63,656 nt of DNA. Origin: Alphaproteobacteria bacterium. Its GTDB lineage: Bacteria; Pseudomonadota; Alphaproteobacteria; MPNO01; UBA830. The notes below the pieces were generated by a model. That model was given only the letters and a program-made list of their open reading frames with translations, made no database searches and was not told where the DNA came from. Numbering within the stretch: position 1 is the first letter of the stretch; each line of letters begins with the position of its first letter. The position numbers and the translations under genes were made by a program. Positions 1 to 54,333 of this stretch are shown here, one piece after another. The stretch is taken from NCBI GenBank assembly GCA_038133505.1, contig JAYPTI010000001.1, forward strand, positions 1 to 63,656, read 5' to 3'.

Positions 1-497
1 ATCCGTCCCGAAAAGGCGGTCCCGGTGACGACCAGCCCGGCACCGACCACGTCGAAGCGCCGGTCGATGGCGAGGCGGAAATTGCCGGCCGCCGGGCGGG
101 GCGGCAGGTCGCGCGCGACCGCGATCAGGTGATGCTTGAGCGCGTCGACGCCGTCGCCGATCATGGCGGACAGCAGAAAGATCGGTGCGCCATCCAGCGT
201 CGTCCCGGCGAGATGTTCTTCCGTCTGGGGCATCGGCCCGTCGTCGGCGGCGACGATGAACAGCACGAAATCGATCCCCGCCACGCCGCACAGCATGTTG
301 CGGATGAACTTCTCGTGGCCCGGCACGTCGATGAAGCCGATGGTCTCGGCACCCTCGAGCGGCAGGTACGCGAAACCGAGATCGATGGTCAGGTTGCGCT
401 TCTTCTCTTCCGGCAGGCGGTCGGTATCGACGCCCGTCAGCGCCTTGATCAGAAGCGTCTTGCCGTGATCGACGTGGCCGGCCGTCGCAATGATCAT
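1..497 (-). CDS. selB: Selenocysteine-specific elongation factor SelB, N-terminal GTPase part (gene continues past the left edge)
   Basis: Not in the ORF track because it runs off the window. The reverse strand from ATG at 497 reads [71 protein letters not shown], with SelB-type G1 (GHVDHGKT) and G3 (DVPGH) motifs. It starts 13 nt after the selA stop. Confidence 0.88.
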
Positions 498-510
498 TTG
501 GGGGCGATGA

Positions 511-1923
511 TCATTGGGGCGGAGAGAGTGCTGAAAGCTGCGCCGCGAACCCGGTCTCGTCGTCGAGGCAGCGGAGATCGAGGACGAAGCTGTCGTCCTG
601 GATACGGCCGATCACCGGGACCGGCAGTGTCCGGAACGCGCTCGCCAGCCGGTTCAGGGCGGAGCCCGCGGCCTTCCGGCTGGCCGGCACGACGGCGAGC
701 CCGGCGCTCGGGATGCGCTGCGTCGGCAGCGCGCCCGATCCGATCTGGCTGTCGCAATCGGCGATCTCCACTGTGCCGAAGTCGCCGACCGCTTTTTGGA
801 GTTCGGGCTGCATGCGCGCGGCGGCGGCGCGGATGTCGTCGACGGGCCGGGCGAGCCAGCGCAGCGTCGGGACGCGCGCGACCAGCCGGTCCGGATCGGC
901 GTAGAGGCGGAGGACGGCCGCCAGCGCCGCGATCGTCATCTTGTCGCAGCGCAGGGCGCGTTTCATCGGGTTCTTCTTGAGCTTGGCGACGATGTCCTTC
1001 GTGCCCACGATGATGCCGCACTGAGGCCCGCCCAGAAGCTTGTCGCCCGAGAACGTGACGACGTCGGCACCGTTCTTCATCGCCTCCATCGGCGTCGGCT
1101 CGTGCGGCAACCCGAAGCGTTCAAGCTCGATCAGCGTTCCGCTGCCGAGATCGATAGCGAACGGAAGGTCGTTGTCGTGGCACAGTTTCGCGAGCTCGGG
1201 TTCCGGCACCTCGGCCGTGAAACCCTCGACGACGTAGTTGCTCGTATGCACCTTCATGATCATGCCGGTCTTCGGTCCGATCGCTTCGGCGTAGTCCTTC
1301 AGGTGCGTCCGGTTGGTGGTGCCGATCTCGATCAGCTTGCAGCCCGACCGCGCCATGATGTCGGGCATGCGGAACGAACCGCCGATCTCGATCAGCTCGC
1401 CGCGCGACGTCGGCACCTCCTTGCGGCTGGCGAGGCTGTTGAGGACCAGCATCACCGCTGCGGCGTTGTTGTTGACGATGGTCGCGGCCTCGGCGCCGGT
1501 CATCCGGCAGAGCATCTCTTCTATATGCTCGTCGCGGTCGCCGCGCTTGCCGGGACCGATCCGGTATTCGAGGTTGCTCGCGCCGCGCGCGGCTTCGGCG
1601 ACCGCCGCGATCGCCTCCTCGGGAAGCGCCGCGCGGCCGAGATTGGTGTGCAGTACCGTACCGGTCAGGTTGAAGACGGGTCGCAGCGACGGGGTTGCGC
1701 GGCGGTCGAGTTCCTCGGCAACGGCGGCGACGATGGCGGGAACGTCCGGGGCGGGACCTCCCTTGTCGCGCAGCGTCCGGCGCAGCTCCGACAGCACGTC
1801 CCGGACGGCGTCGGTCGCCTCGCTGCGGCCGAATTCGTCTGCGAGCGGCGCCATTTCGGCGGCGCCGAGCAGGCGGTCGACGCTCGGGAGCGACGCGAGA
1901 GGGTTTTTGGTGTCATCCGGCAT
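511..1923 (-). CDS. selA: L-seryl-tRNA(Sec) selenium transferase (selenocysteine synthase)
   Basis: Track ORF 511..2313 is over-extended. The conserved part starts at [19 protein letters not shown] (ATG 1921-1923). It carries SelA motifs [14 protein letters not shown] and the PLP-lysine context [17 protein letters not shown]. 470 aa. Confidence 0.9.
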
Positions 1924-2126: not shown

Positions 2127-2813
2127 TTGAAGTACCTGACGGCAATGGCCGCGGGGCTCGCGATAGGGCTCGCGGCGGGCGGCGCAACGGCGCAGACGCC
2201 GCCGACCGGGATCGAATACGAAGCCTATCGCGGCCTCCACGCCGCCGCCCACCGCAACGACGTCGCCGCGATCCGCAAGGCGGCGAAGGCGGCGTTGAAC
2301 GCGCAAGACCCACACGGCCGCACGCCGCTGATGGTGGCGGCCTATGCCCGTAACTACGATGCGCTCCGGGCGCTGATAGAGAAGGGCGCCGACCTCGATG
2401 CGCTGGAAAACGATCGATACGACGTCGTGACGATCGCGTCGGTCATGGACGATACGAAAACGCTCGGCATCGTGCTCAAGGCGGGCGCCAGCGCCAAGCA
2501 GATCACCAGCCCCTACGACGGCACGGCGCTGATCGCCGCCGCCCATCTCGGCCATGCGAAAGTGGTGAAGATGCAGATCGCCGCCGGCGCGCCGCTCGAC
2601 CACGTCAACAACCTCAACTGGACGGCGCTGATCGAATCCATCGTGCTCGGCGACGGCGGACCGGGCCACATAGACTGCCTCAAGGCGCTGGTCGGCGCGG
2701 GAGCGAACGTGAACATTCCCGACGGGCAGGGGACGACGCCTTTGATGCTTGCCGAGAAACGCGGCTACACTGAAATGGCCGACATACTGCGCGTGGCGGG
2801 CGGCCGGCCCTGA
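2127..2813 (+). CDS. Secreted ankyrin-repeat protein
   Basis: 228 aa. Signal peptide MKYLTAMAAGLAIGLAAGGATAQ. Repeated ankyrin-like units (GRTPLMVAA..GADLDA, GTALIAAAHLGH, WTALIESI, GTTPLMLAEKRGY). Confidence 0.8.
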   Translation: MKYLTAMAAGLAIGLAAGGATAQTPPTGIEYEAYRGLHAAAHRNDVAAIRKAAKAALNAQDPHGRTPLMVAAYARNYDALRALIEKGADLDALENDRYDVVTIASVMDDTKTLGIVLKAGASAKQITSPYDGTALIAAAHLGHAKVVKMQIAAGAPLDHVNNLNWTALIESIVLGDGGPGHIDCLKALVGAGANVNIPDGQGTTPLMLAEKRGYTEMADILRVAGGRP

Positions 2814-2847
2814 CCGGTCGGACCTGCCGCCGATCCGGGAGGAAGAC

Positions 2848-4065
2848 ATGGACGAACACGTCTCTCGCAATCTCCGGCCGTCTCTCAACGCCTCCGCACG
2901 GCGTTTCACCGACATAGACTCGTTTCCCGAGCCGGCGCGCACGCGCGTCGGCCAGGTCTTCACGGACGCGAAGGCCTCGCTGGCCCGCGAATTCGTAGGG
3001 GTTACCGCCGGGGACATTCCCGCCGGCCTGTTTCCCGTGGTCAGGACCGGCATTTCCATGGCGCCGGTCCTAAAGGCGGCGGACCGGCTCCGGGCAGCGC
3101 TCGGCGACGACCGCTGGAAGCAGGTCTGCTTCCCCGTCGAGGACGACGGTCCGTGGCGGTCGTGGCACAACATGCACATCTTCCTGATGCGCCACGGCGT
3201 CTCGCTCGCCGATCTGGACGACGCGCAGCGCACCGCGGCGCTCGCTCTGGTCGAGGCGTGCTCCAGTGCGGCCGGCTACCGCAACGCGCGCGATATCATG
3301 CGCCTGAACGAGCACGCCGCCGAGATCACCGGCGATCCCGAGGAATTCGGCGAGTGGTGGTACTGGATCAGCATCTTCGGCGAGCCGTCCGAGACCGCAC
3401 CGTGGGGCTGGCAGATCGACGGCCACCACCTGATCGTCAACTGCTTCATCTACGGCGACCAGATGGTCATGACCCCCGATTTCCGCGGCTCCGAGCCGGT
3501 GCACGCAAAATCGGGCAAGTACGAGGGAACGCGCGTCTTCCACGAGGAGCAGTCGCGCGGGCTCCAGTTCATGCAGGCGCTGTCGGGCGGCCAGCAGGAA
3601 CAGGCCGTGATCGGGACGCAATTGCCGCGCGACGTCATCACCACCGCGCAGATGGACAATCTGGAGCTGGCCTATGCCGGCATCCGCTCGGACGCGCTTG
3701 AGCCGGCCCAGCAGAAGCTCCTGATGGAGCTGGTCGAGATCTATGTCGGGCGCATCCGAACCGGCCATGCCGAGGTTCGCATGGACGAGGTGAAGAAGCA
3801 CCTCGCCGACACGCATTTCGGCTGGATCGGCAAGCACGGCGGGACGGAACCGTTCTACTACCGGGTGCACAGTCCGGTGATCCTGATCGAGTTCGATCAC
3901 CTGCCCGGCATCATCTGGGACAACATGGAGCCGACGCACGATCACATCCACACCATCGTGCGGACGCCGAACGGCAACGACTACGGCCGGAATCTGCTGC
4001 GCCAGCATTACGAGCGCCATGACCACAGCCACGCGCACACACCGCACCGCAAGGGGCTGGTTTAG
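2848..4065 (+). CDS. DUF3500-family protein with His-rich C-terminus
   Basis: Start chosen at ATG 2848 behind GGGAGGAAG (the track ORF starts earlier, at 2749, overlapping the ankyrin gene). Motifs WGWQIDGHHLIVNCF and FYYRVHSPVILIEFDH, as I remember them for DUF3500. Confidence 0.65.
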   Translation: MDEHVSRNLRPSLNASARRFTDIDSFPEPARTRVGQVFTDAKASLAREFVGVTAGDIPAGLFPVVRTGISMAPVLKAADRLRAALGDDRWKQVCFPVEDDGPWRSWHNMHIFLMRHGVSLADLDDAQRTAALALVEACSSAAGYRNARDIMRLNEHAAEITGDPEEFGEWWYWISIFGEPSETAPWGWQIDGHHLIVNCFIYGDQMVMTPDFRGSEPVHAKSGKYEGTRVFHEEQSRGLQFMQALSGGQQEQAVIGTQLPRDVITTAQMDNLELAYAGIRSDALEPAQQKLLMELVEIYVGRIRTGHAEVRMDEVKKHLADTHFGWIGKHGGTEPFYYRVHSPVILIEFDHLPGIIWDNMEPTHDHIHTIVRTPNGNDYGRNLLRQHYERHDHSHAHTPHRKGLV

Positions 4066-4096
4066 GTAGAGGTCTCGGCCCGCTGCCGAACAAACC

Positions 4097-5701
<1,605 letters not shown>

Positions 5702-5840
5702 GTCGGTTTCCTGAGGGTCGGTGCGGCGGGAATATAGGGCGGGTGCGACAGAATTTACAGGGAAAGCTCCGGCGGTCGATTTGTCGCTTCCGGCGCGCTA
5801 CGATGCCCTGAAACAAACCGTTCCGTGCGAGGGACACGCC

Positions 5841-7151
5841 ATGGATACGCTCACCGCCACCAAGCTCGACTACCAGTCCGGTTTCGGCAACGAATTCGCC
5901 ACCGAGGTGCTGCCCGGCGCCCTGCCTGACGGCCGGAATTCGCCGCAGAAGGCGCCTTACGGGCTCTATGCCGAACTGATCAGCGGCACCGCTTTCACCC
6001 AGCCGCGGAGCGAAAACCTGCGCACCTGGGTCTACCGGATGCGCCCGTCCGTGACGCACGGCGCTTTCCGCCAGATCGACGCGGGGCTGTGGCGCACGCC
6101 GCCGTTTGCCGAGGGCGTTCTCTCGCCCCAGCAGAACCGGTGGGATCCGTTCCCGATACCGGAGGGCGACGCCGACCTGATCGACGGCATGAGCACGATC
6201 GGCGGCAACGGAGATGCGAATACGCAGGCCGGCATCGGCATCCACGTCTACACGGCAAACAAGTCGATGACCGAGCGGTTCTTCTATAACGCGGACGGCG
6301 AGATGCTGTTCGTCCCGCAGCAGGGACGGCTCCGGCTCGTGACCGAGATGGGCGTCGTCGAGGCCTCACCCAACGAGATCGCCGTCGTTCCGCGCGGCGT
6401 GAAGTTCCGCGCCGAACTGCCCGACGGCCCGTCCCGCGGCTATGTCTGCGAGAACTACGGCGCGGCGCTGCGGCTACCCGACCTCGGGCCGATCGGCTCG
6501 AACGGGCTCGCCAATCCGCGCGATTTCCTCGCGCCCGTTGCAGGCTTCGAGGACAAAGAGGGCGATTTCGAGCTGGTCGCCAAGTTCGGCGGCGGGATGT
6601 GGGCGGCGGAGACCCGCTATTCGCCGCTCGACGTCGTCGCCTGGCACGGCAATCTCGTGCCGTACAAGTACGATCTCCTGAAGTTCATGGTGATCGGGAC
6701 GATCAGCTTCGACCATCCCGACCCGTCGATATTCACGGTGCTGACGTCGCCGTCCGGGCCGGCCGGGCTCGCCAACGTCGATTTCGTGATCTTTCCGCCG
6801 CGCTGGCTGGTCGGCGAGGATACGTTCCGGCCGCCCTGGTACCACCGCAACTTCATGAGCGAGTTCATGGGTCTCGTCTGCGGTCAGTACGACGCCAAGC
6901 CGGAGGGGTTCGTGCCCGGCGGCGCCAGCCTGCACAACACGATGTCCGCGCACGGGCCCGACGTGGATGCGTTCGAAAATGCGACCAAAGCAGATCTGAA
7001 GCCGGTGAAGCTCGACGATACGATGGCCTTCATGTTCGAGACCCGCTACCCGATCCGGCTGACGGATTGGGCGGCCAACAGCCCGCAGATGCAGCACGGC
7101 TATTCGACGTGCTGGGACGGGCTTGAGAAGAAATTTACGGGTAAAAAATAA
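5841..7151 (+). CDS. hmgA: Homogentisate 1,2-dioxygenase
   Basis: Start at ATG 5841 ([29 protein letters not shown]). The track ORF begins 40 codons upstream. Typical HGO sequence throughout. The stop TAA overlaps the fahA ATG (TAATG). Confidence 0.93.
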
Positions 7152-8473
7152 TGCCGACACTGAACGACACCCACGACCCGGCCCTCAAGAGCTGGGTCGA
7201 CGGGGCCGATGCGCCCGACGCGGATTTTCCGGTCCAGAACCTGCCGTTCGGCGTGTTCGCTCATCCCGATACCGGCGCAGCGACCGTGGGCGTCGCGATC
7301 GGGGACTCGATCCTCGACGTTTCCGCCGCGTACCGAAAAGGCTTGATCGGCGGCGCGGCCGACGATGCGGCGCGGGCCTGCGGCGCCTCGACGCTGAATG
7401 CGCTGATGGCGCTCGGCGGCCGGCACTGGTCGGCGCTGCGCGCGGCGCTGTCGCAGCTTCTAAGGGCGGACACCGAGGCCGGCGAACAGGCGCAGGCGGT
7501 GGCGGACGAGATCCTCGTGCCGATGGCCGGCAGCAAGCTTCTGCTGCCGGTGCAGATCGGCGACTACACGGATTTCTATGCCTCGATCTTCCACGCCACC
7601 AACGTCGGCAAGATGCTGCGGCCCGACAATCCGCTGATGCCGAACTACAAACACATCCCGATTGCCTATCACGGGCGCGCATCGTCGATCGTGGTCAGCG
7701 GCGAGCCGTGCAAGCGGCCGGTCGGCCAGACCAAGGCGCCTGACGCCGACGCGCCGTCGTTCGGCCCGTCGATGGCGTTCGACTACGAGACCGAGATCGG
7801 TTTCTACGTCGGGCCGGGCAACCCGCTCGGCCAGCCGGTGTCGCTGGAGGAAGCGGAGGATCACATCTTCGGGCTCTGCATCCTCAACGACTGGTCGGCG
7901 CGCGACATCCAGGCGTGGGAGTACCAGCCGCTCGGGCCCTTCCTCGCCAAGAGCTTCGCCTCGCACGTCTCGCCCTGGGTGGTGACGTTGGAGGCGCTCG
8001 CGCCGTTCCGCTGCGGCGCCTATGACCGGCCCGACGGCGACCCGGCACCGCTGCCCTACCTGTCTTCCGCCGCCAACGATTCCGATGGCGGCTTCGACGT
8101 GCAGATCGAGGTCTCCATCGTATCCGAGAAGATGCGTGCCGAGGGGATGGACCCCGAAGTGCTCGCCGTTACCAACATGCAGCATCTCTACTGGACGATC
8201 TTCCAGATGCTGACTCATCACACGTCGAACGGCTGCAACCTGCGCCCCGGCGATATGATGGGCACCGGCACGATCTCCGGGCCCGACGAGGACTCGCTCG
8301 GCTCGATCCTCGAGATCACCAAACGCGGCGCGAATCCCGTGAAGTTGCCGACGGGCGAGGAGCGAAAGTTTCTCGGCGACGGCGACGAGTTGACCATGCG
8401 CGCCTGGTGCGAGAAGGATGGCGCACGGGCCATCGGCTTCGGCGCGTGCAGCGCCGTGATCGAGCCCGCCTGA
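7151..8473 (+). CDS. fahA: Fumarylacetoacetase
   Basis: 440 aa. FPVQNLPFGVF, DYTDFYASIFHATNVG and GDMMGTGTISG are typical of FAH. Translationally coupled to hmgA. Confidence 0.92.
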   Translation: MPTLNDTHDPALKSWVDGADAPDADFPVQNLPFGVFAHPDTGAATVGVAIGDSILDVSAAYRKGLIGGAADDAARACGASTLNALMALGGRHWSALRAALSQLLRADTEAGEQAQAVADEILVPMAGSKLLLPVQIGDYTDFYASIFHATNVGKMLRPDNPLMPNYKHIPIAYHGRASSIVVSGEPCKRPVGQTKAPDADAPSFGPSMAFDYETEIGFYVGPGNPLGQPVSLEEAEDHIFGLCILNDWSARDIQAWEYQPLGPFLAKSFASHVSPWVVTLEALAPFRCGAYDRPDGDPAPLPYLSSAANDSDGGFDVQIEVSIVSEKMRAEGMDPEVLAVTNMQHLYWTIFQMLTHHTSNGCNLRPGDMMGTGTISGPDEDSLGSILEITKRGANPVKLPTGEERKFLGDGDELTMRAWCEKDGARAIGFGACSAVIEPA

Positions 8474-8496
8474 CGGCCGGCCCCCGGTTCCAATCC

Positions 8497-10821
8497 ATGG
8501 CGGACATCGTCGGCGCCCGTGTCAAACGGATCGAGGACCCCGACCTGCTGCGCGGGCGCGGCGTTTTCGTCGACGACATCCACCTCGCCGCCGGGCTCCA
8601 CGCCGCGTTCGTCCGCAGCCCGCATCCGCACGCGGACATCCACGGAATCGATGTAACCGCGGCCCGCGCGGCGCCGGGCGTGCATGCCGTCTTCACGCTC
8701 GACGATTTCCGGCCGCATCTGACGAGCCCGCGCCTGCCGCTGGAATTCCCGTCGAAGAATCTTTCGGAAGACGTGACGCCGTTCCTGCTGGCATCGGGCG
8801 AGGTATGCTACGTCGGCGAGGCGGTTGCGATGGTGGTCGCGGACTCCCGATACCTTGCCGAGGACGCAGCGACGATGGTCGCGGTCGACTACGCGCCGCT
8901 GCCGTCGGTGGCGGGCTGTGCGGCGACCCATGCTCCCGGCGCGCCCGCCGTCCATTCGGGGGACGCCGACAACGTCTTGGTCGAGATCGAGCAGGCCTAT
9001 GGCGACGTGGACGCCGCGTTCGCGTCGGCGCATGCCGTCTATTCGGACCGCTTCGTTCAGCATCGCGGCGGCGCGCATCCCATCGAGGGGCGCGGCGCGG
9101 TCGCACGCTACGACGCCATGGACGACCGGCTGACCCTATGGTCGTCGACGCAGATGTCGCACGAGGTGCGGTCCGCCATCGTGCGGATGCTCGACATCGA
9201 CGAGGGGCGCATCCGCGTGGTTGCGCCCGAGGTCGGCGGCGGGTTCGGCTCAAAATACATCGCCTATGCCGAGGAGGTTGCCGTCGCGCTCGCCGCGAAG
9301 CTGCTCGACCGGCCGGTCAAATGGATCGAGGACCGGCGCGAGCATTTCATCGCCGCCATCCAGGAACGCGAGCAGGACTGGTCGATGGAGATCGCCGTCG
9401 ACGCCGACGGCCGCGTCCTCGGCATCCGCGGCGAGATGATCCACGACCAGGGCGCCTACACGCCGCAGGGCATCAACATGCCCTACAACGCGTCGACCGC
9501 CGTGCCGGGTCCCTACATCGTGCCGGCATACGCGATCAAGGTGCACGTGGTCGAGACCAACGCCGTGCCGACCGCGCCGGTACGGGGGGCAGGGTATCCC
9601 GAAGGCAACTATGCAATGGAGCGGCTGCTCGACCGCGCGGCGCAGGGGCTTGGCATGGACCGCGCCGAGATTCGCCGCCGCAACCTGATCCCGGCGGACG
9701 AGATGCCCTACGCGACGCCGCTGCTGACGCGCGCCGGCACGCCCGTGGAGGCCGACAGCGGCGACTTTCCCGAATGCCAGCGCATCGCGATGGAGGCGAT
9801 CGACTATGCCGGGTTCCCGGCGCGGCAGGCGGCGGCACGGGCCGAGGGACGCTATCTCGGCATCGGCATCGCCAACAGCCTGAAGGGCACCGGGCGCGGA
9901 CCGTTCGAATCCGGTTCGGTGCGGATAGAGCGCTCCGGCAAGGTCCGCGTGTTCACCGGCGCGCTCGCCATGGGGCAGGGGCTCAAGACGATGCTGGCGC
10001 AGGTGACGGCGGAACAGCTCGGCGTTGGTCTCGACGAGATCGAGGTCGTCGCGGGCGATACCGGCACCATCGCGCTCGGCCTCGGCGGCTTCGCCAGCCG
10101 CCAGACGGTTACGGCGGGCTCGTCGGTGCACTATGCGGCAACCGAAGTCCGGACGAAGGTGCTCAAGCTCGCCGCGCACCTGCTGGAGGCGGCCGAGGAA
10201 GACCTCGAGATCGTCGACGGCACGATCCGGGTGCGCGGCTCCGACGTGACGATCCCGCTGAAGGCGGTCGCGGAAGCGGCGTCCGGCGCGCCCGGCTACT
10301 CGATGCCCGACGGCGTCGATCCGGGGCTGGAGGCGAACGTCAATTTCAAGCCGCCGGCGCTGACCTATTCCAACGGCACCCACGCCGTCGAGGTCGAGGT
10401 CGATATCGGCACCGGCGAAGTCGTCTTCAGGCGCTATGTCGTGGTCAGCGACTGCGGCACGCTGATCAACCCGATGATCGTCGACGGCCAGATCGCCGGC
10501 GGCGTCGCGCACGGCATCGGCAACGCGCTGTTCGAATGGATGGGCTACGACGAGCGCGGCCAGCCGCTGACCACGAATTTCGGCGAATATCTGATCCCCG
10601 GCGCGCCGGACATCCCCGATTTCGAGCTGCACTACATGCAGTCGCCGACGCCCTTGAACCCGCTGGGCGTGAAAGGTGTCGGCGAAACCGGCACGGTTCC
10701 CGCTGCCGCGGCTGTCGTCGCCGCGGTCGAGGACGCGCTGTCGCCGTTCGGCGCGCGGATTTCCGACTATCCGGTCAGCCCGACGAAGATCGTGGAGATT
10801 GTCCGGGGCGCTCCCGACTGA
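8497..10821 (+). CDS. Xanthine dehydrogenase/CoxL-family molybdopterin-binding large subunit (no partner subunits adjacent)
   Basis: Start at ATG 8497 (MADIVGARVKRIEDPDLLRGRGVFVDDI). PVRGAGYPEG and GVKGVGETGTVPAAAAV motifs of aldehyde oxidase/XDH a/b-hammerhead + MoCo domains. 774 aa. Confidence 0.85.
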   Translation: MADIVGARVKRIEDPDLLRGRGVFVDDIHLAAGLHAAFVRSPHPHADIHGIDVTAARAAPGVHAVFTLDDFRPHLTSPRLPLEFPSKNLSEDVTPFLLASGEVCYVGEAVAMVVADSRYLAEDAATMVAVDYAPLPSVAGCAATHAPGAPAVHSGDADNVLVEIEQAYGDVDAAFASAHAVYSDRFVQHRGGAHPIEGRGAVARYDAMDDRLTLWSSTQMSHEVRSAIVRMLDIDEGRIRVVAPEVGGGFGSKYIAYAEEVAVALAAKLLDRPVKWIEDRREHFIAAIQEREQDWSMEIAVDADGRVLGIRGEMIHDQGAYTPQGINMPYNASTAVPGPYIVPAYAIKVHVVETNAVPTAPVRGAGYPEGNYAMERLLDRAAQGLGMDRAEIRRRNLIPADEMPYATPLLTRAGTPVEADSGDFPECQRIAMEAIDYAGFPARQAAARAEGRYLGIGIANSLKGTGRGPFESGSVRIERSGKVRVFTGALAMGQGLKTMLAQVTAEQLGVGLDEIEVVAGDTGTIALGLGGFASRQTVTAGSSVHYAATEVRTKVLKLAAHLLEAAEEDLEIVDGTIRVRGSDVTIPLKAVAEAASGAPGYSMPDGVDPGLEANVNFKPPALTYSNGTHAVEVEVDIGTGEVVFRRYVVVSDCGTLINPMIVDGQIAGGVAHGIGNALFEWMGYDERGQPLTTNFGEYLIPGAPDIPDFELHYMQSPTPLNPLGVKGVGETGTVPAAAAVVAAVEDALSPFGARISDYPVSPTKIVEIVRGAPD

Positions 10822-14581: not shown

Positions 14582-15181
14582 CTATTTGAGCGCGGCGAGG
14601 ATCGCGTCGATATCGCGCCGGTCGCGATGGCTGGCGTACGAAAAACGGTGCGTGATCGTTCCGTCCGGCGCTGCCACGAAAATCATCGGAATCGCGACGC
14701 CGTACCAGCTGCTGCCCTTCGGAAACTGCGGGTTGGCGATGCCGAAGGCAGGGATGATCTCCGCCCTGGGCTCGGACAGCATCGTGTAGCCGATGTTCCG
14801 CTGATCCTTGAAGATCTTCATCTTGGCGGGCGTATCGTGCGCCACCAGCACGAAGTTGTAGCCGAGCTTCCGGACGTCCTTAACGCGTTCGTTCCAGGCG
14901 ACCGCCTGGGCCTTGCAGGGGGGTCACCAGTCGACCGAGCGGCTGAACAGGATCAGCAGCCCGCGCTTGTGCGCCAGCGACTTGAAATCCTGATGCTGCC
15001 CGTCCTGGTCGAGGGTCGACAGGTTATGCGGGATTTGCGCACCGACTTTCGATCCGGCCTTGATGTCGTCGCGCTCCGCGGCGAAGCCCGGCGCCGAAGC
15101 GAACCCGACGGCAAGCGCGACCGCGAGCGCGCCCAGGGCGCGGCGTCCGATCCATCGGCGAAGCGATAATTTCCAACCCAT
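14582..15181 (-). CDS. Putative selenocysteine-containing AhpC/TSA-redoxin-like thioredoxin-fold protein with signal peptide (UGA at 14924-14926 read as Sec; active site W-U-P-P-C)
   Basis: The last 85 codons of track ORF 14924..17521 (MGWKLSLRRWIGRRALGALAVALAVGFASAPGFAAE...GLLILFSRSVDW) continue in the same frame past TGA into PPCKAQAVAWNERVKDVRKLGYNFVLVAHD... There is no further stop until 14582. The track ORF 14582..14851 is the tail of this frame. A SECIS-like hairpin follows, and selAB are in the window. Confidence 0.72.
14894..14909 (-). promoter_or_regulatory. Candidate bacterial SECIS minihelix
   Basis: mRNA: UGA-CCCCCCUGCAAGGC-CCAGGC-GGUC-GCCUGG. It has a 6-bp stem and a GGUC apical loop. 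The stem starts 14 nt after the UGA. Confidence 0.6.
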
Positions 15182-15255
15182 AGGCGAAACTATAGAACGC
15201 GGCGCCGCGTCGGCCGATTCACCTTTTCGTATAGGGGGGGCGGTGCGGTCTTGTC

Positions 15256-16320
15256 TCAGTCGAGTTTCAGCAGCGATTTCGCATTGCCGCCCCAGATGGC
15301 CGCCTTGTCGCCCGCGTCCAGCGTGTCGACGAGATCGACCAGCTCGACCGGGTTGTAGTCGCCCATGTCGTATGGGTAGTCCGTTCCCATGACGAGCTTG
15401 TCGGTGCCGTACTGCTCGATCAGGTACTTGAGCTGGTGCGGCGTGAAGACGACGGTGTCGAGCCACATCTTCTTGAGATAGTTCGTCGGCGCCTGGGTGA
15501 CGTGCTGGCGGCCGTCCTCGCGCGCGCCCCACACATGATCGATGCGGCCTGAATAGGCCGGCAGGTATCCGCCGCCGTGGGCGAGCAGGATCCGCAGGTT
15601 CGGATATCGTTCCATGACGCCGTCGAAGATCAGCCGGTGGACGGCGATCGTCGTCTCGAGCGGGTTGCCGATCACGTTGTTGAAATAGTGGTCCTTGAAC
15701 CGCTCGGCCGAGGTAAAGCCGTTCGGGTGGATGAAGATCAGCGTGTCGAGCTCCTGCGCCTTGGCCCAGAACTTCTCCAGCCGCGGGTCCGAGATCTCCG
15801 TGCCGTTGACGTTGGTCAGGATCTGGAAGCCCTTGAGGCCCAGCTTGGTGACCCCGCGCTCCAGCTCCTCGACCGCCATGTCGGCGTCCTGCAGCGGGAT
15901 GTTGCCGAAGGCGACGAAACGGTCGGGCATGTCGTCGACGATCTCGGCGAGGCCGTCGTTCACGAGCTGCGCCGTCTTCATGCCGATCTCGGCCGGCAGC
16001 CAGTAATAGGCCTGGAACGGCGGCGGAATGATGGTCTGCAGGTCGATGCCCATCTTGTCCATGTCGATCAGCCGGTGGTCGACGGTGGTCAGATGCGGCA
16101 TCCGGTCGACGTTCTGCTGCATGTTGATCTGGCGCGTCATCTCGTTCGCGAACAGGACCGCGGGTTCCATGTCCGGCGTGAAATGGGGGTCGGCTATTTC
16201 CGCCGCTGCCGGAATATGGACATGGCAGTGGATGTCGACGGTGAAGGCGTCGGGCTTCTTCGGCGCGCTGCCGGGCTGGGGTCGGGCGGATGTGTAGACG
16301 TAAGGCTGGGCGCCGGCCAT
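15256..16320 (-). CDS. Amidohydrolase-2 family protein (ACMSD/aromatic-acid decarboxylase-like)
   Basis: 354 aa. VDIHCHVH metal site, ILLAHGGG, GTDYPYDM. SD AAGAGGAAA lies upstream. Confidence 0.8.
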   Translation of the reverse strand: MAGAQPYVYTSARPQPGSAPKKPDAFTVDIHCHVHIPAAAEIADPHFTPDMEPAVLFANEMTRQINMQQNVDRMPHLTTVDHRLIDMDKMGIDLQTIIPPPFQAYYWLPAEIGMKTAQLVNDGLAEIVDDMPDRFVAFGNIPLQDADMAVEELERGVTKLGLKGFQILTNVNGTEISDPRLEKFWAKAQELDTLIFIHPNGFTSAERFKDHYFNNVIGNPLETTIAVHRLIFDGVMERYPNLRILLAHGGGYLPAYSGRIDHVWGAREDGRQHVTQAPTNYLKKMWLDTVVFTPHQLKYLIEQYGTDKLVMGTDYPYDMGDYNPVELVDLVDTLDAGDKAAIWGGNAKSLLKLD

Positions 16321-16356
16321 CGGATGTTTCCTCTTCGTGCTTGCTGTTGCGGCTTG

Positions 16357-17427
16357 TTAGCGGAGACGCTCCACGCCGAGCTCGTCGGCGAGCGTGTCGA
16401 GATTCTTGAGAAGCGCGGCGTGCACCGGGACGCCGTTCGCATTGTAATCGTCCAGTTTCGAGGCGCGGCCGTCGCCGGGCACCCGGACGGCGTCGAACCC
16501 GGGGAGCGGCGTCGCGCGCCGCATGGTGCGCGACACCGCGTCGACCCGCTTGCCGAAATCGGCCGGGTCGCCGAAGCGCGCGGGATCGACGACGATAATG
16601 AAATGGCCGTTGTTGACCGGCGTAGACTGATAGGCCTCGTCGCCCATCCCCTCGACCTCGACGCCCATCTGCGCGCCCGACAAAGTCGCGGCGAGAAGGC
16701 CGACGACGAGCGACAGCGCATAGCCCTTGTGCTCGCCGATGGGGTTCAGCGTTCCCTCCGAAATGCGGGTCGAGTCGGTGAGCGGCTTGCCGTCGCGGTC
16801 GAACATCCAGCCGACCGGCAGTTCCTCGCCGCGCTGCGCGGCGGTTCGCACCTTGCCGAACGAGGCGGTCGTCGTCGCGATGTCCATCACGACCGGCGGT
16901 TCCTCGCCGGCGGGGATCGCGGCGGCGATCGGGTTGGTGCCGAGCAGCAGATCGGCGCTGCCCCAGGGCGCCATGTGATTGGCGCTGCCGTTGGTGCCGT
17001 AAAGCGCGATCATGCCCCGGTCGGCCGCCATGGAGACGTAGGTCGCCGCTGCCCCCGCATGGTTGGAGTGGCGCGCGCCGACCCAGGCGCAGCCGGCTTC
17101 CGCCGCCTTGTCGATCGCGACGTTGGCGGCGAACTGCATGACGAGATGGCCCATCGCGTTGTCGCCATCGACGACGGCGGTCGCGGCAGATTCCTGAAGC
17201 GTCCGGATGTTCGGGGTGACGTTGATGCCGCCGGAACGGATGCGTTTGACGTATTGGGCGAGCCGGAAAATGCCGTGCGTATGGAACCCGGCGAGGTCCG
17301 ACGCCACCATCAGCCGTCCGCAATCCGCAGCGTCGCGCTCGGGAAATCCCAGATGCACGAGCGTCCGGGCGATGAAACCGGCGATGGCATCGGCGGGAAA
17401 GCGCTGTTCGGCGGGGGCGTCGGCCAT
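16357..17427 (-). CDS. Ldh_2 family (malate/L-lactate/sulfolactate dehydrogenase-like) oxidoreductase
   Basis: Start at ATG 17427 (MADAPAEQRFPADAIAGFI). HTHGIFRLAQYV, ARHSNHAGAAATY and GEHKGYALS are typical of Ldh_2. Confidence 0.82.
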   Translation of the reverse strand: MADAPAEQRFPADAIAGFIARTLVHLGFPERDAADCGRLMVASDLAGFHTHGIFRLAQYVKRIRSGGINVTPNIRTLQESAATAVVDGDNAMGHLVMQFAANVAIDKAAEAGCAWVGARHSNHAGAAATYVSMAADRGMIALYGTNGSANHMAPWGSADLLLGTNPIAAAIPAGEEPPVVMDIATTTASFGKVRTAAQRGEELPVGWMFDRDGKPLTDSTRISEGTLNPIGEHKGYALSLVVGLLAATLSGAQMGVEVEGMGDEAYQSTPVNNGHFIIVVDPARFGDPADFGKRVDAVSRTMRRATPLPGFDAVRVPGDGRASKLDDYNANGVPVHAALLKNLDTLADELGVERLR

Positions 17428-17683
17428 GTGGGTCGGGATACCGTGCGGGGCTGAGAATGGAACGGCAGCCAGAATAGCCTCTAAGGCGACGGTCGCGCCA
17501 GCCTCGGCGGATTCTGTCCAAAGGCCGAACACCTGAATGCGATTGCCTCGCATTTAATACAATTTTTAGGATGTTCCCCTATCACCCGGGGCAGCGCTGC
17601 GGGCATCGGCATCTTAAATGGTAGTCCGGGTAGGTCATGTGTTTCGCCGGTCCCGCGTTTTCCGGATCCATCGAGAGAAAACT

Positions 17684-50337: not shown

Positions 50338-50480
50338 CCGGCCTCAGGAAAGTTCTTCTGATCGCGATGGCGGCGGCGCTTGCCGTGTCGATCGCGTCCT
50401 GCGGCAAGAAGGCGCGCAAGCTCGATCCCGCCGACGGCGGCAAGAGCGGTTATCCGAACACCTATCCCAGTTCCAAATAG
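50334..50480 (+). CDS. Small lipoprotein (LptM/YifL-like position upstream of lysA)
   Basis: 48 codons from a GTG that overlaps the argH stop. [48 protein letters not shown] with lipobox IASC. Too short for the ORF track. Confidence 0.65.
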
Positions 50481-50496
50481 TGAGGCGCGAAATCCG

Positions 50497-51780
50497 ATGA
50501 ACGGCTTCGCATATCGCAGCGGGGCGTTGTTCGCGGAAGATGTGGCGATTGAGGAGATCGCGGATGCGGTCGGCACGCCCTTCTACTGCTACGCCGCGTC
50601 CATGCTGCGCGACAGATACATCGCCTTCGAGAAGGCGCTGCACGGGCTCAACGCCGACATCTGCTTTGCGGTGAAGGCGAACAGCAACCAGGCGGTCATC
50701 GCACTGTTCGCCGGTCTCGGCGCAGGCGCGGACATCGTCTCGGAGGGCGAATTGCGCCGTGCGCTTGCCGCCGGCGTTCCCGCCTCGAAAATCGTGTTCT
50801 CCGGCGTCGGCAAGACGCGGAGCGAAATGACCGCCGCGCTGGAGGCCGGGTGCGGCCAGTTCAACGTCGAATCCGAGCCCGAGCTCGATGTCCTCTCGGA
50901 GGTGGCCGCCGGGCTCGGCAAGACCGCCACGGTCGTCTTCCGGGTCAACCCCGATGTCGATGCGGGGACCCACCACAAGATCTCGACCGGGCGCGCCGGC
51001 GACAAGTTCGGCATCGCGTTCGACCGCATCGGGGCCGTCTATGCGCGCGCCGGGACGCTGCCCGGGATCCGGCCGTCGGGGCTTGCGGTTCATATCGGCT
51101 CCCAGCTGACGCGCCTCGATCCGTTCCGGGCGGCGTTCGAGCGCGTCGCCGGTCTGGTCCGGTCGTTGCGCGCCGAGGGCCTGACGGTCGAGCGCCTCGA
51201 TCTCGGCGGCGGGCTGGGGATCGTCTATCGCGACGAATCTCCGCCCGAGCCGACGGAATACGGCGATATCGTCCGTGATGTCTTCGGGCAGATGGATGTC
51301 GCGCTGACGTTCGAGCCCGGCCGGTTCCTGACCGGCGAGGCGGGTCTCCTCGTGACGCGCGTCATCTATGTAAAAGACAGCGGCGGAAGACGGTTTACGA
51401 TCGTGGATGCGGCAATGAACGATCTGGTGCGGCCGACGCTCTACGATGCGTGGCACGACGCGGTTCCGGTGCGGCAGCCGGCCGCCGATGCGCTGCGCAC
51501 GCCGACCGATATCGTCGGCCCGGTATGCGAGACCGGCGACGTGCTGGCGGTGCAGCGGGACATGCCGCCCGCCGCGCCCGGCGATCTGATCGCGCTGACG
51601 TCCGCCGGGGCCTACGGCGCGGTAATGTCGTCGACCTACAACAGCCGGCTCCTGGTGCCCGAAATAATGGTTAACGGCGGGGACTATGCCGTTATCCGGC
51701 AGCGCCCTAGTTATGATACATTGATCGGCCTCGACAGCGTTCCGGACTGGGTTTCCGGACCGTCGGGGCCCGGCTCCTGA
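50497..51780 (+). CDS. lysA: Diaminopimelate decarboxylase
   Basis: Start at ATG 50497 (MNGFAYRSGALFAEDV). FAVKANSN (PLP Lys), HIGSQ, GGGLGI, EPGRF, CETGD. Confidence 0.93.
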   Translation: MNGFAYRSGALFAEDVAIEEIADAVGTPFYCYAASMLRDRYIAFEKALHGLNADICFAVKANSNQAVIALFAGLGAGADIVSEGELRRALAAGVPASKIVFSGVGKTRSEMTAALEAGCGQFNVESEPELDVLSEVAAGLGKTATVVFRVNPDVDAGTHHKISTGRAGDKFGIAFDRIGAVYARAGTLPGIRPSGLAVHIGSQLTRLDPFRAAFERVAGLVRSLRAEGLTVERLDLGGGLGIVYRDESPPEPTEYGDIVRDVFGQMDVALTFEPGRFLTGEAGLLVTRVIYVKDSGGRRFTIVDAAMNDLVRPTLYDAWHDAVPVRQPAADALRTPTDIVGPVCETGDVLAVQRDMPPAAPGDLIALTSAGAYGAVMSSTYNSRLLVPEIMVNGGDYAVIRQRPSYDTLIGLDSVPDWVSGPSGPGS

Positions 51781-51813
51781 TCCACGGCACCTGAGACAAG
51801 GAAAGGCCGCAGA

Positions 51814-54333
51814 ATGAGCGAACGCGAAGCCCCGCCCGCAGCGTCGAAATCCCGAAGCGCGATGGCCGGACTTGCGAGGCGCGTCGTTCAGGCCCGCCTG
51901 AGCCTCGCCTGGGAGGCCATGTGGCCGGCTCTCTGGCCGCCGCTGGGCATCGCCGGCGCCTTCCTCGGCGTCGCTTTCCTCGATCTGTTCGCGTTTCTGC
52001 CCGGCTGGCTGCATGCGCTCGCGCTCGCAGCCTTCGCGGGCCTGTTCGGCTGGACGCTGTACCGGGGTGCGCGTCATCTGATCTGGCCCGACCGCACCGC
52101 GGCGCTGCGGCGGATCGAGCAGGCCAGCGGCCTCGAGCATCGGCCCCTCGAAGCGCTGCAGGACCGCCTGCCCGACGGCGTCGACGATCCGACGTCGCGC
52201 GCTCTCTGGGCGGCGCACCAGCGCCAGATGGCCGACCGCGTCCGCGCGCTGAAGGTGGGAACGCCGGCGCCGGGGCTGCCCTCCCGCGATCCGTGGGCGG
52301 TTCGCATCGCCGTCGTGCTGCTGCTGTTCGTCGGCGTCGTCGTGGCGGGCGCGGACGCGCCGCACCGTCTTGCGCAGGCGTTCGCGCCGCAGTTCGGCGA
52401 GGCCTCGAAGACGCGCGCCGCAAAGCTCGAAATCTGGGTGACTCCGCCCGAATACACGCGGCTGCCGCCTATCTTCCCGATCCAGATCGCCCGCGATCAC
52501 GCCGAGGCGCTCAAGCAGGCCGCCGACCGTCCGGAGTCCGAGGGGCCCCCGCCCAAGGCGGCCGAGCTCGAGATCGAAATTCCCGAGGGCAGCACGCTGA
52601 CGGCCATCGTGTCCGGCGGCGACGGCGCTGCGGCGCTCGACATCAACGGCAAGACCACCCCGTTCGAGGCGCTCGATGCGGTCAACAGGCGTCTGCAGGC
52701 GCCGGTGGCGGAGAGCGGGCGGGTGTCCGTCGTTCTCGGCGGCAAGACGCTCGGAAGCTGGAAGGTGCGTACCCGCCCCGACAATCCGCCGACGATCGCC
52801 TTCGACGGCGCGCCAGCCCCGACGCAACGCGGCACGCTGCGTCTCGCCTATACCGGATCCGACGATTACGGCATCACCGAAATTCGCGGCGAGATGCGCC
52901 GTACCTACGAGCGCGGAGACGTGATCGGCAAGGAAGTCTCGAAGTTCGACCTGCCGACGCCGTCGTTGAATGCGCGCGAGATCAAGGAGGCGACGTTCCA
53001 GGAGATCGCGCCGCATCCGTGGGCGGGCCTCCCGGTCGTGATCCGGCTGGCCGCCAAGGACGCGGCCGGTCACGAGAGCTTCTCGGAAGAGATCAAGATG
53101 ATCCTGCCCGAGCGCGATTTCAGCAATCCGATCGCCAAGCGCATCATCGAGGAACGCCGCAAGCTGACCACCACGCCGGAACGGCGCGGCGAGGTCATCC
53201 GCTCGCTGAACGAGATCGCGAGCCAGCCCGGCGCGTTCAAGGACGACACGGTCGTCTTCATGGGGCTGATCTTCTCGCGCTCCCGCCTGTTCCACGAGGA
53301 AGAGGACAGCGCGATCCCGCCGGTGCGCGAGCTCATGTGGGATACGGCGCTCCGCGTCGAGGACGGCCAGCTGTCGCATGCAGAACGCGATCTTCTGCGC
53401 GCGCAGGAGGCGCTGATGAAGGCGCTGGACTGGAATGCCTCCGATGCCGAGCTCGAGCGCCTGATGCGCGAATTGCAGAACGCGATGAACCGCTACATGC
53501 GCGAGCTGGCGCGCAAGCTGCAGGAATCGCCGCAGACCGAACAGGCGATGCCGATGGATCCGACGACGCGCATCATGCGGACCGCGGACTTCCAGCGCAT
53601 GATGGAGCAGATTCGCGACATGATGCGCGCCGGTGCCCGCGACGCGGCGCGGCAGATGCTGTCCCAGCTCCGCAACATGCTGGAAAGCCTCCGCAACGCG
53701 CGGATGATGCGCGGCAATCCGCAGAACCAGCAGGGCAACCAGGCATTCCGCCAGCTGCAGGAGATGATCCAGCAGCAGAACCAGCTCATGGACCGCACGT
53801 TCCGCCAGTCGCAGGGCAATCAGCAGAACATGCAGAACCAGATCCAGCAGGGCGCCGGACAGCAGCAGCAGCTTCGCGAGATGCTCCAGAAGTTCCAGCA
53901 GATGATGCAGGGCATGATGCCCGGCGACAGCCCCGCCATGCGGGCGCTCGGCCAGGCGGGGCAGGCGATGGAAGACGCGGCCAAGGCGCTCGGCCAGGGC
54001 CAGCCCGGCCAGGCCGTCGGGCCGCAGGGCCAGGCGCTGGAAGCGCTCCAGCGGGCCGGACGCGGCATGATGCAGCAGATGATGAACCGCTTCGCGCGCG
54101 GCTCCGGCATCGGCATGGAACGGCAGTTCAACCCGCTAAACTCGATGCGCGATCCGCTGGGCCGCGAATGGCAGGGCGAGGACGGCGCCGACACGCGCCG
54201 CGTGACGATACCGGACAAGGGCGCCATCGAGCGCGCGCAGGAAATTCTTCAGGAATTGCGCAAGCGCGCCGGCCAGCGCCACCGCCCGCAGCTCGAACTC
54301 GATTACATCAACCGGCTGCTGCAGCGTTTCTGA
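51814..54333 (+). CDS. Large conserved membrane protein with Q/M-rich C-terminal region (TIGR02302/DUF4175-like)
   Basis: 839 aa. N-terminal TM helices, a long soluble region, and a low-complexity QQNQLMDRTFRQSQGNQQNMQNQIQQGAGQQQQ segment. The position after lysA matches the alphaproteobacterial synteny as I recall it. Confidence 0.7.
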   Translation: MSEREAPPAASKSRSAMAGLARRVVQARLSLAWEAMWPALWPPLGIAGAFLGVAFLDLFAFLPGWLHALALAAFAGLFGWTLYRGARHLIWPDRTAALRRIEQASGLEHRPLEALQDRLPDGVDDPTSRALWAAHQRQMADRVRALKVGTPAPGLPSRDPWAVRIAVVLLLFVGVVVAGADAPHRLAQAFAPQFGEASKTRAAKLEIWVTPPEYTRLPPIFPIQIARDHAEALKQAADRPESEGPPPKAAELEIEIPEGSTLTAIVSGGDGAAALDINGKTTPFEALDAVNRRLQAPVAESGRVSVVLGGKTLGSWKVRTRPDNPPTIAFDGAPAPTQRGTLRLAYTGSDDYGITEIRGEMRRTYERGDVIGKEVSKFDLPTPSLNAREIKEATFQEIAPHPWAGLPVVIRLAAKDAAGHESFSEEIKMILPERDFSNPIAKRIIEERRKLTTTPERRGEVIRSLNEIASQPGAFKDDTVVFMGLIFSRSRLFHEEEDSAIPPVRELMWDTALRVEDGQLSHAERDLLRAQEALMKALDWNASDAELERLMRELQNAMNRYMRELARKLQESPQTEQAMPMDPTTRIMRTADFQRMMEQIRDMMRAGARDAARQMLSQLRNMLESLRNARMMRGNPQNQQGNQAFRQLQEMIQQQNQLMDRTFRQSQGNQQNMQNQIQQGAGQQQQLREMLQKFQQMMQGMMPGDSPAMRALGQAGQAMEDAAKALGQGQPGQAVGPQGQALEALQRAGRGMMQQMMNRFARGSGIGMERQFNPLNSMRDPLGREWQGEDGADTRRVTIPDKGAIERAQEILQELRKRAGQRHRPQLELDYINRLLQRF

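Follow-up and report, generated by a model that had tools for sequence, protein, structure and literature searches.

The gene and its in-frame TGA

We analyzed a window of 63,656 nucleotides (nt) from contig JAYPTI010000001.1 of an alphaproteobacterial assembly (GCA_038133505.1), focusing on a minus-strand gene at positions 14582 to 15181 that probably encodes an exported selenoprotein with a thioredoxin fold. The gene, which we annotate as the precursor of a peroxiredoxin-like (Prx-like) thiol:disulfide oxidoreductase of 199 amino acids, starts with an ATG at 15181-15179 and runs for 85 codons to a TGA at 14926-14924, the putative selenocysteine (Sec) codon, and then for another 113 codons to a TAG at 14584-14582. 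The frame (MGWKLSL...SRSVDW-TGA-PPCKAQAVAWN...ALK-TAG) has 199 sense codons with one internal TGA; the codons before it end in F-S-R-S-V-D-W, and those after it read P-P-C-K-A-Q-A-V-A-W-N and finish with A-L-K. The TGA (residue 86, referred to here as U86) takes the first redox position of a W-U-P-P-C motif (residues 85 to 89, bases 14929-14915), a column that holds Cys or TGA in homologues. With the U read as C, the joined protein matched the Pfam models AhpC-TSA (PF00578; 6.4e-20, 71.8 bits against a cutoff of 26) and Redoxin (1.5e-12).

An earlier note on this DNA, made from the sequence alone, had proposed the 199-amino-acid frame with its one TGA, the two open reading frames that cover its parts (14924..17521 and 14582..14851), and an AhpC/TSA- and redoxin-like product, all of which we recovered at the same coordinates. 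Its expectation that standard gene callers would report two fragments or nothing was also borne out, since in other assemblies the gene is split into an 85-amino-acid product without a recognizable domain and an 89-amino-acid AhpC-TSA product. The former lacks most of the fold, and the latter starts at an internal GTG and lacks the redox motif. This amounts to a systematic annotation error, in that all assemblies examined contain the same pair of a hypothetical protein and an “AhpC-TSA” fragment, and the gene would not be rescued by any NCBIfam model. Within the 63.6-kb window, the TGA at 14926-14924 is the only one with a G+C content at third codon positions (GC3) of at least 0.8 across 60 stop-free codons on each side, and a systematic scan of all TGAs in the window by this criterion gave no second read-through candidate. 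An apparent read-through at 51778-51780 (plus strand, within 50362-54333; same frame, high GC3 on both sides) was rejected, as it separates two adjacent genes for a pyridoxal phosphate-dependent Orn/DAP/Arg decarboxylase and a DUF4175 protein.

A genomic scan using one genome per species returned 74 loci of this family. The codon in the TGA column was TGA in three of them (L003, L004, and L005) and TGC or TGT in all others (∼70). L003 is a syntenic locus from a metagenome-assembled genome (MAG) with 86% identity to the window protein, while L004 and L005 share 49% and 42% identity with it, respectively. Two full-length database homologues (P0001 and P0002, ∼40% identical) likewise carry Cys in this column (S-V-D-W-C-P-x-C), as the earlier note had anticipated for Cys-containing relatives. 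A search of metagenomes with a DNA pattern that fixed only F-x-R-S-[VL]-x-W-TGA-P-x-C, leaving the hairpin region downstream unconstrained, retrieved at least 120 stretches with TGA at that column, all of them family members and from diverse lineages. The motif R-S-V-D-W-[C/U]-P-x-C is invariant across the homologues, and homology to family members reaches the C terminus of the window protein.

The codons on both sides of the TGA are under purifying selection. Compared with the syntenic L003 (synonymous divergence, dS, of ∼0.46), the ratio of nonsynonymous to synonymous substitution rates (dN/dS) was 0.18 over the 50 codons that precede the TGA and 0.11 over the 113 that follow, indicating that the part beyond the apparent stop is translated. 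Four independent JGI metagenome assemblies that are 97.8 to 99.7% identical to the window have both the TGA and the downstream hairpin in identical form, which excludes a sequencing error. The earlier note had named a TGC, TGT, or TGG on resequencing as the outcome that would speak against a Sec codon; what these four assemblies and the syntenic MAG locus carry is TGA. In a neighbor-joining tree of 176 sequences, the window protein falls into a pure Sec clade of 31 members whose sister group consists of three Cys forms. The tree implies at least seven switches between Sec and Cys in the family, a count that is only indicative because the two classes were sampled by different patterns.

The hairpin downstream of the UGA

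Fourteen nucleotides past the UGA begins a putative bacterial Sec insertion sequence (SECIS) minihelix at 14894 to 14909 (minus strand). Counting the U of the UGA as nt 1, it consists of CCAGGC (nt 18 to 23), a GGUC loop (nt 24 to 27), and GCCUGG (nt 28 to 33), encodes (A)-Q-A-V-A-W, and has an energy of -11.6 kcal/mol in context. Its position, its 14-nt offset, and the placement of the loop G-U at nt 25 and 26 are those given in the earlier note. The bacterial SECIS consensus of Zhang and Gladyshev (2005), as summarized in a 2026 review (PMC13188914), describes a stem of 4 to 16 bp, a loop of 3 to 9 nt with a G within its two initial positions, a spacing of 16 to 37 nt, and an energy of -7.5 kcal/mol or lower. 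With 6 bp, a loop starting with GG, a spacing of 20 nt, and its energy of -11.6 kcal/mol, the window hairpin lies within all four published limits. A comparable hairpin in this range accompanies by chance ∼1.2% of the TGA triplets in the window.

As in Escherichia coli fdhF and bacterial SECIS elements in general, the hairpin is part of the coding sequence, comes immediately downstream of the UGA, and has a small apical loop whose first base, G, is followed by G or U. Its loop sequence, GGUC, equals that of the fdhF minihelix. The two differ in that the loop G-U occupies nt 23 and 24 in fdhF but nt 25 and 26 here, and in that the window hairpin has neither a bulged U in the upper stem nor an extended lower helix.

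Comparison with other genes suggests that this hairpin is maintained as an RNA element. Among the window gene, L004, and L005 (42 to 53% protein identity), in which 24% of third codon positions are invariant overall, the hairpin itself, the 16-nt CAGGCGGTCGCCTGGA, is the longest stretch of the gene without any nucleotide variation. We then compared distinct Sec and Cys forms of the family, the counts given here and for the clades below being those among the matches listed. A stem of at least 6 bp was present in 99 of 102 Sec forms, exclusively in registers 51 and 52 (one nucleotide apart) and with G25-U26 in the loop, versus 4 of 73 Cys forms, in which the registers were scattered. The alternation of TGA and TGC or TGT therefore goes together with the presence and absence of the hairpin, an association that the earlier note had put forward as a check.

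In sister clades, the stems differ in sequence while the pairing is kept (CAGUU/AACUG, CAGCU/AGCUG, CAACU/AGUUG, and CAGAU/AUCUG). For 44 sister-clade sequences, 99.2% of the cells were paired, versus 9 to 42% in controls with slid partners, and 42 double-sided changes were counted; pair 18-34, for example, is GC in 19 sequences, UA in 12, CG in 8, and AU in 3. The resulting covariation score was reached by none of 500 shuffles. Across the 25 distinct sequences of the window's own clade, hardly any variation is seen in the hairpin, which is 89.7% paired; G-U wobbles occur, as does a single swap from GC to AU. With its one register, its loop G-U, its covarying stems, and its loss in Cys forms, this comparison is an unusually clean natural experiment on the constraints acting on SECIS elements. 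The signature R-S-x-x-W-TGA-P-x-C combined with a hairpin anchored at the Q codon also offers a simple means to repair more than 100 such gene calls.

Two loci depart from this pattern. The metagenomic locus L114, a Q-E-V-V-W variant, is the only Sec form with a degraded hairpin (CCAAGA-GGUC-GUCUGG, best stem 3 bp), a state that may reflect decay of the selenoprotein gene or a read error. Conversely, L064, from an uncultured Halieaceae MAG, is a Cys form (TGC) that has the full hairpin CAACUG-GUC-CAGUUG in the register of the Sec forms, and may represent a recent conversion from Sec to Cys.

Family, active site, and predicted export

The window gene belongs to a known selenoprotein family that has been catalogued since 2004 to 2008, to which it adds a subclade rather than a new kind of system. 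The family, for which PMC13188914 cites Kryukov and Gladyshev (2004), was described from 22 sequences of the Sargasso Sea selenoproteome as a Prx-like protein whose UXXC motif resembles that of thioredoxin (PMC1088965), as “Prx-like 1” (pfam00578, UxxC) in the Global Ocean Sampling (GOS) data (225 sequences; PMC2398784), and as “Prx-like thiol:disulfide oxidoreductase” in the genomes of Geobacter, Syntrophus, and Desulfotalea (PMC1794560). It is defined by the UxxC redox motif and not by the TxxU motif of Sec-containing peroxiredoxins (PMC1088965, PMC2398784), and the W-U86-P-P-C89 of the window protein fits this definition. In the searched part of the GOS supplementary data set, 17 sequences with SVDWUP are listed under “#Prx-like 1” (e.g., ...NRSVDWUPFCMRQFVKLND...). 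These NRSVDWUPFC sequences correspond to a sister clade recovered in our analysis (39 complete members among the matches listed), which is ∼34% identical to the window protein and has in common with it the invariant R-S-x-x-W-U-P-x-C-x-x-Q.

The window subclade is set apart from published Prx-like 1 by the motif U-P-x-C-x-x-Q-A-V-[A/V]-W, a length of ∼200 amino acids, a signal peptide, and its occurrence in Rhodospirillales-like alphaproteobacteria; no sequence of the Q-A-V-[A/V]-W type was found in the searched part of the GOS supplementary data set. The published heading also takes in a distinct cytoplasmic type, F-Y-R-G-H-W-U-P-Y-C. Export, a frozen SECIS sequence, and fusions to DsbD_N are not discussed in the accounts of Prx-like 1 in PMC1088965, PMC2398784, and PMC13188914. 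Our data add a signal-peptide-bearing subclade from soil or freshwater alphaproteobacteria to a family hitherto represented mostly by marine reads.

A family profile of 30 sequences was aligned to profiles of PDB structures. The best match was the Bcp-type peroxiredoxin 2cx3 (2.9e-19), and ResA was matched as well (4nmu, 3.6e-16; 3c71, 7.3e-16). The U86 column coincides with the Thr/Ser of peroxiredoxins and with the first Cys of ResA, the C89 column with the peroxidatic Cys of peroxiredoxins, and the P165 column with the catalytic Arg of Bcp-type peroxiredoxins and the cis-Pro of ResA, while Ser82, part of the invariant R-S, occupies the peroxiredoxin Pro column. Pro165, encoded at 14687 to 14689 (minus strand), is predicted to be a cis-proline opposite the U-x-x-C center and is nearly invariant (P128 in alignment A5). 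Thus, from the peroxiredoxin motif P-x-x-x-T/S-x-x-C plus Arg only the Cys (C89) is retained, whereas the features of ResA, TlpA, and CcmG, namely, a W-C-x-x-C-type motif, a cis-Pro, and an extracytoplasmic signal peptide, are all found. On the evidence of these profiles, the scaffold is of the AhpC/TSA type and carries a predicted active site that is thioredoxin/ResA-like (W-U-P-x-C plus cis-Pro) and not peroxiredoxin-like.

The window protein and ResA/TlpA/CcmG align in their W-C-x-x-C motif, cis-Pro, and fold, both are exported (by prediction, in the case of the window protein), and both probably depend on a DsbD/CcdA relay, as suggested for the window family by the DsbD_N fusions described below. 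The window family differs, however, in its invariant R-S-V-D-W lead-in, its AhpC/TSA-type C-terminal half, and the use of Sec in place of the nucleophilic Cys, and no cytochrome c maturation genes lie in the neighborhood of the window gene. No NCBIfam model came near its cutoff (Bcp, 43 bits versus 140; ResA, 26 versus 170; DsbE, 20 versus 123). Since the protein scores far under the cutoffs of the curated ResA and DsbE models, we regard the resemblance to ResA as an analogy and not as subfamily membership. With Bcp/PrxQ, the window protein has the best overall profile match (2cx3) and the common AhpC/TSA scaffold, but none of the catalytic residues Pro, Thr, and Arg is retained, so that canonical peroxidase chemistry is not expected.

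The precursor starts with a predicted signal peptide (residues 1 to 34, MGWKLSLRRWIGRRALGALAVALAVGFASAPGFA; 15080 to 15181, minus strand) that combines a basic n-region with a hydrophobic core and an AxA-like site, with cleavage probably occurring after G-F-A. Comparable signal peptides are present in L004 and L005 and in 93% of the complete members of the window's clade (among the matches listed). The earlier note had described an RR-containing signal peptide. While the signal peptide is conserved, the RR is not a conserved twin-arginine translocation (Tat) motif: it is missing from L004, L005, and metagenomic members of the clade, and the window n-region, S-L-R-R-W-I-G, fits the Tat consensus S/T-R-R-x-F-L-K poorly. 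Given that the twin arginine is not conserved, the signal peptide is most likely of the general secretory type rather than the Tat type.

A clue to the electron supply comes from long-form Sec clades (U-P-x-C-x-x-Q-L-V-E-L and Q-L-G-E-L), which contain a C-terminal DsbD_N domain (PF11412, DsbD-alpha) with the motif Y-Q-A-C-x4-C. This domain scored 27.9 and 34.1 bits against a cutoff of 25 in the two long forms that were scanned, and was read by eye in the others. Through this fusion, the U-x-x-C domain is linked to an electron relay of the thiol-disulfide type, and together with the cis-Pro the fusion is evidence that the family acts as an oxidoreductase in a disulfide relay rather than as a peroxidase. 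The long-form loci L094, L084, L097, L108, L116, and L172 extend for 270 to 330 codons after the UGA, many of them without an obvious signal peptide.

From the comparative signature, we infer that the hairpin CCAGGC-GGUC-GCCUGG would act as a bacterial SECIS element, to be bound by SelB-GTP-Sec-tRNA(Sec) so that codon 86, UGA, is decoded as Sec and not as a stop. The signal peptide would then take the 199-amino-acid precursor across the inner membrane, most likely through the general secretory pathway, and would be removed near G-F-A|A-E, leaving a mature protein of ∼165 amino acids with an AhpC/TSA (thioredoxin) fold, in which W-U86-P-P-C89 marks the beginning of helix 1 and lies opposite the predicted cis-Pro P165. 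Given that the site is wired like those of thioredoxin, ResA, and TlpA and lacks the peroxiredoxin Pro, Thr, and Arg, the role of exposed nucleophile is expected to fall to U86 and that of resolving residue to C89, the two cycling between a selenol/thiol and a selenenylsulfide. U86 would attack a disulfide or sulfenic acid of a periplasmic substrate, and C89 would resolve the intermediate to the selenenylsulfide. Re-reduction could be provided by a membrane relay of the DsbD/CcdA type, since sister clades fuse the U-x-x-C domain to a DsbD_N alpha domain that keeps its two cysteines. In this scheme, comparison shows the recoding signal and the active-site wiring; SelB binding, export, chemistry, and electron donor are inferred.

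Selenium genes and alternative explanations

Two genes of the Sec machinery lie at the start of the window. The gene for L-seryl-tRNA(Sec) selenium transferase, selA, is located at 511 to 1923 (minus strand; the start, MPDDTK..., is probably at ∼1920) and appears intact, matching TIGR00474 with 2.9e-175 (583 bits against a cutoff of 268) over model positions 2 to 447 of 455. It adjoins selB, which runs off the window start, so that only its N-terminal 165 codons are present (1 to 497, minus strand). The earlier note had counted both genes as present. This holds for selA, whereas the visible part of selB, besides being cut by the window edge, carries an in-frame deletion of 37 codons with a junction at ∼199 to 208. 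The window SelB aligns to residues 1 to 100 and then 138 to 199 of E. coli SelB, and to residues 5 to 102 and then 146 to 204 of Aquifex SelB. The deletion takes out β5, the guanine-specificity motif G4 (T-K-I-D), and the helix behind it. These 37 residues (111 nt) are present in the close relatives P0003 to P0005 and P0055, in the scaffold L203, and in solved SelB structures, the segment reading A-I-L-D-L-L-G-V-x-R-G-A-V-A-L-T-K-I-D-R-V...L-F-A in the relatives. Owing to the absence of G4, this particular strain may be impaired in Sec decoding, unless the assembly is wrong at this point; the gap could be a real inactivating deletion, an assembly artifact, or a loss offset by a second selB elsewhere.

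The gene order in a relative suggests where further selenium genes may be found. On L202 (positions 2929 to 9285; ENA ERZ26222911, ctg898213), a long-read contig whose SelB N terminus is 89% identical, a formate dehydrogenase-like molybdoenzyme gene is followed by selA, selB, a gene for a Prx-like selenoprotein of a second type (...VIIFYRGHW-TGA-PYCRRQLV...), and then an Ndh-SelD fusion gene (Pyr_redox_2-AIRS), which places a Prx-like selenoprotein and selD within the sel operon of this relative. Given this order of selA, selB, Prx-like gene, and Ndh-SelD, the genes missing here may lie just past the window edge. On L203 (positions 2612 to 3660), a TARA Oceans short-read scaffold, selB is 96% identical over the N terminus and has the G4 region, with an apparent frameshift after ...P-V-S-A. 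We did not accept the apparent frameshifts in L202 and L203 as a sign of lineage-wide selB decay, since the former is a contig of 2x coverage and the latter a TARA scaffold.

On the strength of the comparative data, we consider it probable, at roughly 85%, that the TGA at 14926-14924 is a genuine Sec codon in an exported thioredoxin-fold protein and that the hairpin is a SECIS element of the functional type. Several observations weigh against this. The window selB lacks the 37 residues with the G4 motif, the tRNA-Sec gene (selC) was not found within the window, and neither was selD, for which ten mid-sized open reading frames were examined. Moreover, the unconstrained minimum free energy fold of the 60 nt after the UGA pairs differently and has a stability z-score of 0.27 relative to shuffled sequences. 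The case for the hairpin therefore rests on comparison with other genes and not on thermodynamics. Rfam contains no matching SECIS model, as judged from a scan of the whole window at gathering thresholds and of 14780 to 15000 at an E value of up to 10, and covariation is weak inside the window's own clade, which is explained by the near invariance of the hairpin there. At the level of the protein, a structure prediction for the Cys homologue P0001 from a two-sequence alignment reached a pLDDT of only 45 and was unusable, for which reason the active-site geometry relies on the sequence-profile alignment. No gene neighborhood common to the window, L004, and L005 suggests a partner or substrate. 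Finally, the 2026 review grades the family as “predicted with high confidence” only (PMC13188914).

Some of these points could be turned into the view that there is no selenoprotein at all, and that the locus is a pseudogene inactivated by a nonsense mutation, a pair of small genes, or a sequencing error at a TGC, TGT, or TGG codon. The 85- and 89-amino-acid products of the gene callers, the unexceptional minimum free energy fold, and the lack of an Rfam match would agree with it. Nevertheless, TGA stands in the same column in more than 120 genes of diverse lineages and recurs in five assemblies, selection is strong past it, the hairpin goes with TGA and is absent with TGC/TGT, and neither fragment makes sense as a gene, one having no redox motif and the other little of the fold. 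We therefore regard this explanation as highly improbable and effectively refuted by the comparative data. It is somewhat less improbable, albeit still unlikely, that the selenoprotein has recently been disabled, the gene and its SECIS being intact and SelB dead through the G4 deletion, with only the 85-amino-acid fragment made and the Sec trait being lost. The T-K-I-D region, absent from the window selB, occurs in all close relatives and in the two solved SelB structures, and the degraded hairpin of L114 indicates that such genes do decay. However, the selB deletion is in frame and selA is intact, and the selenoprotein gene has no sign of decay, with a dN/dS of 0.11 after the TGA and a hairpin identical in five strains. 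The deletion could also be an assembly artifact or a second selB could exist; none of the four other assemblies reaches selB.

A further question concerns the function of the protein, given that AhpC/TSA proteins and Bcp-type thiol peroxidases are its closest matches in Pfam, PDB, and NCBIfam. It could be a true peroxiredoxin in which Sec or C89 is peroxidatic and reduces H2O2 or organic hydroperoxides in the periplasm in the manner of Bcp/PrxQ. Selenols react fast with peroxides, and C89 lies in the peroxidatic Cys column. Against this, of the four active-site residues, three have been exchanged (Ser82 stands in place of Pro, U86 in place of Thr, and Pro165 in place of Arg), the W-C-x-x-C motif with its cis-Pro is of the thioredoxin type, the NCBIfam peroxidase models remain far under their cutoffs (43 bits versus 140), and sister clades are fused to DsbD-alpha, a disulfide-relay module. 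The literature, too, separates the family from peroxiredoxins on account of its UxxC motif (PMC1088965). A peroxidase function thus seems doubtful, and we favor a thiol:disulfide oxidoreductase. There is likewise a small chance that everything proposed here applies jointly, that is, that a selenoprotein exported by the general secretory pathway, with a frozen SECIS (CAGGCGGUCGCCUGG, dictating Q-A-V-A-W) and a DsbD-type electron supply, coexists with a G4-less SelB. In that event, either the G4-less SelB still works or the loss of the Sec trait has been caught in progress. We know of no experimental demonstration that a Sec-containing protein is exported by the general secretory route.

Two further features of the window are noted here. 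Upstream of the selenoprotein gene, no σ70-like promoter and no clear Shine-Dalgarno sequence were seen. A G+C-rich, terminator-like hairpin (GACGCGGCGCCGCGTT followed by CTATAGTTTC) is located at 15196 to 15211 (minus strand), between the amidohydrolase gene that lies upstream and the selenoprotein gene, 15 nt ahead of the ATG. The gene prfC, which encodes release factor 3 (RF3), is found at 4097 to 5701 (minus strand), ∼2 kb from selA and separated from it by an ankyrin-repeat gene and a DUF3500 gene, a proximity that is probably coincidental.

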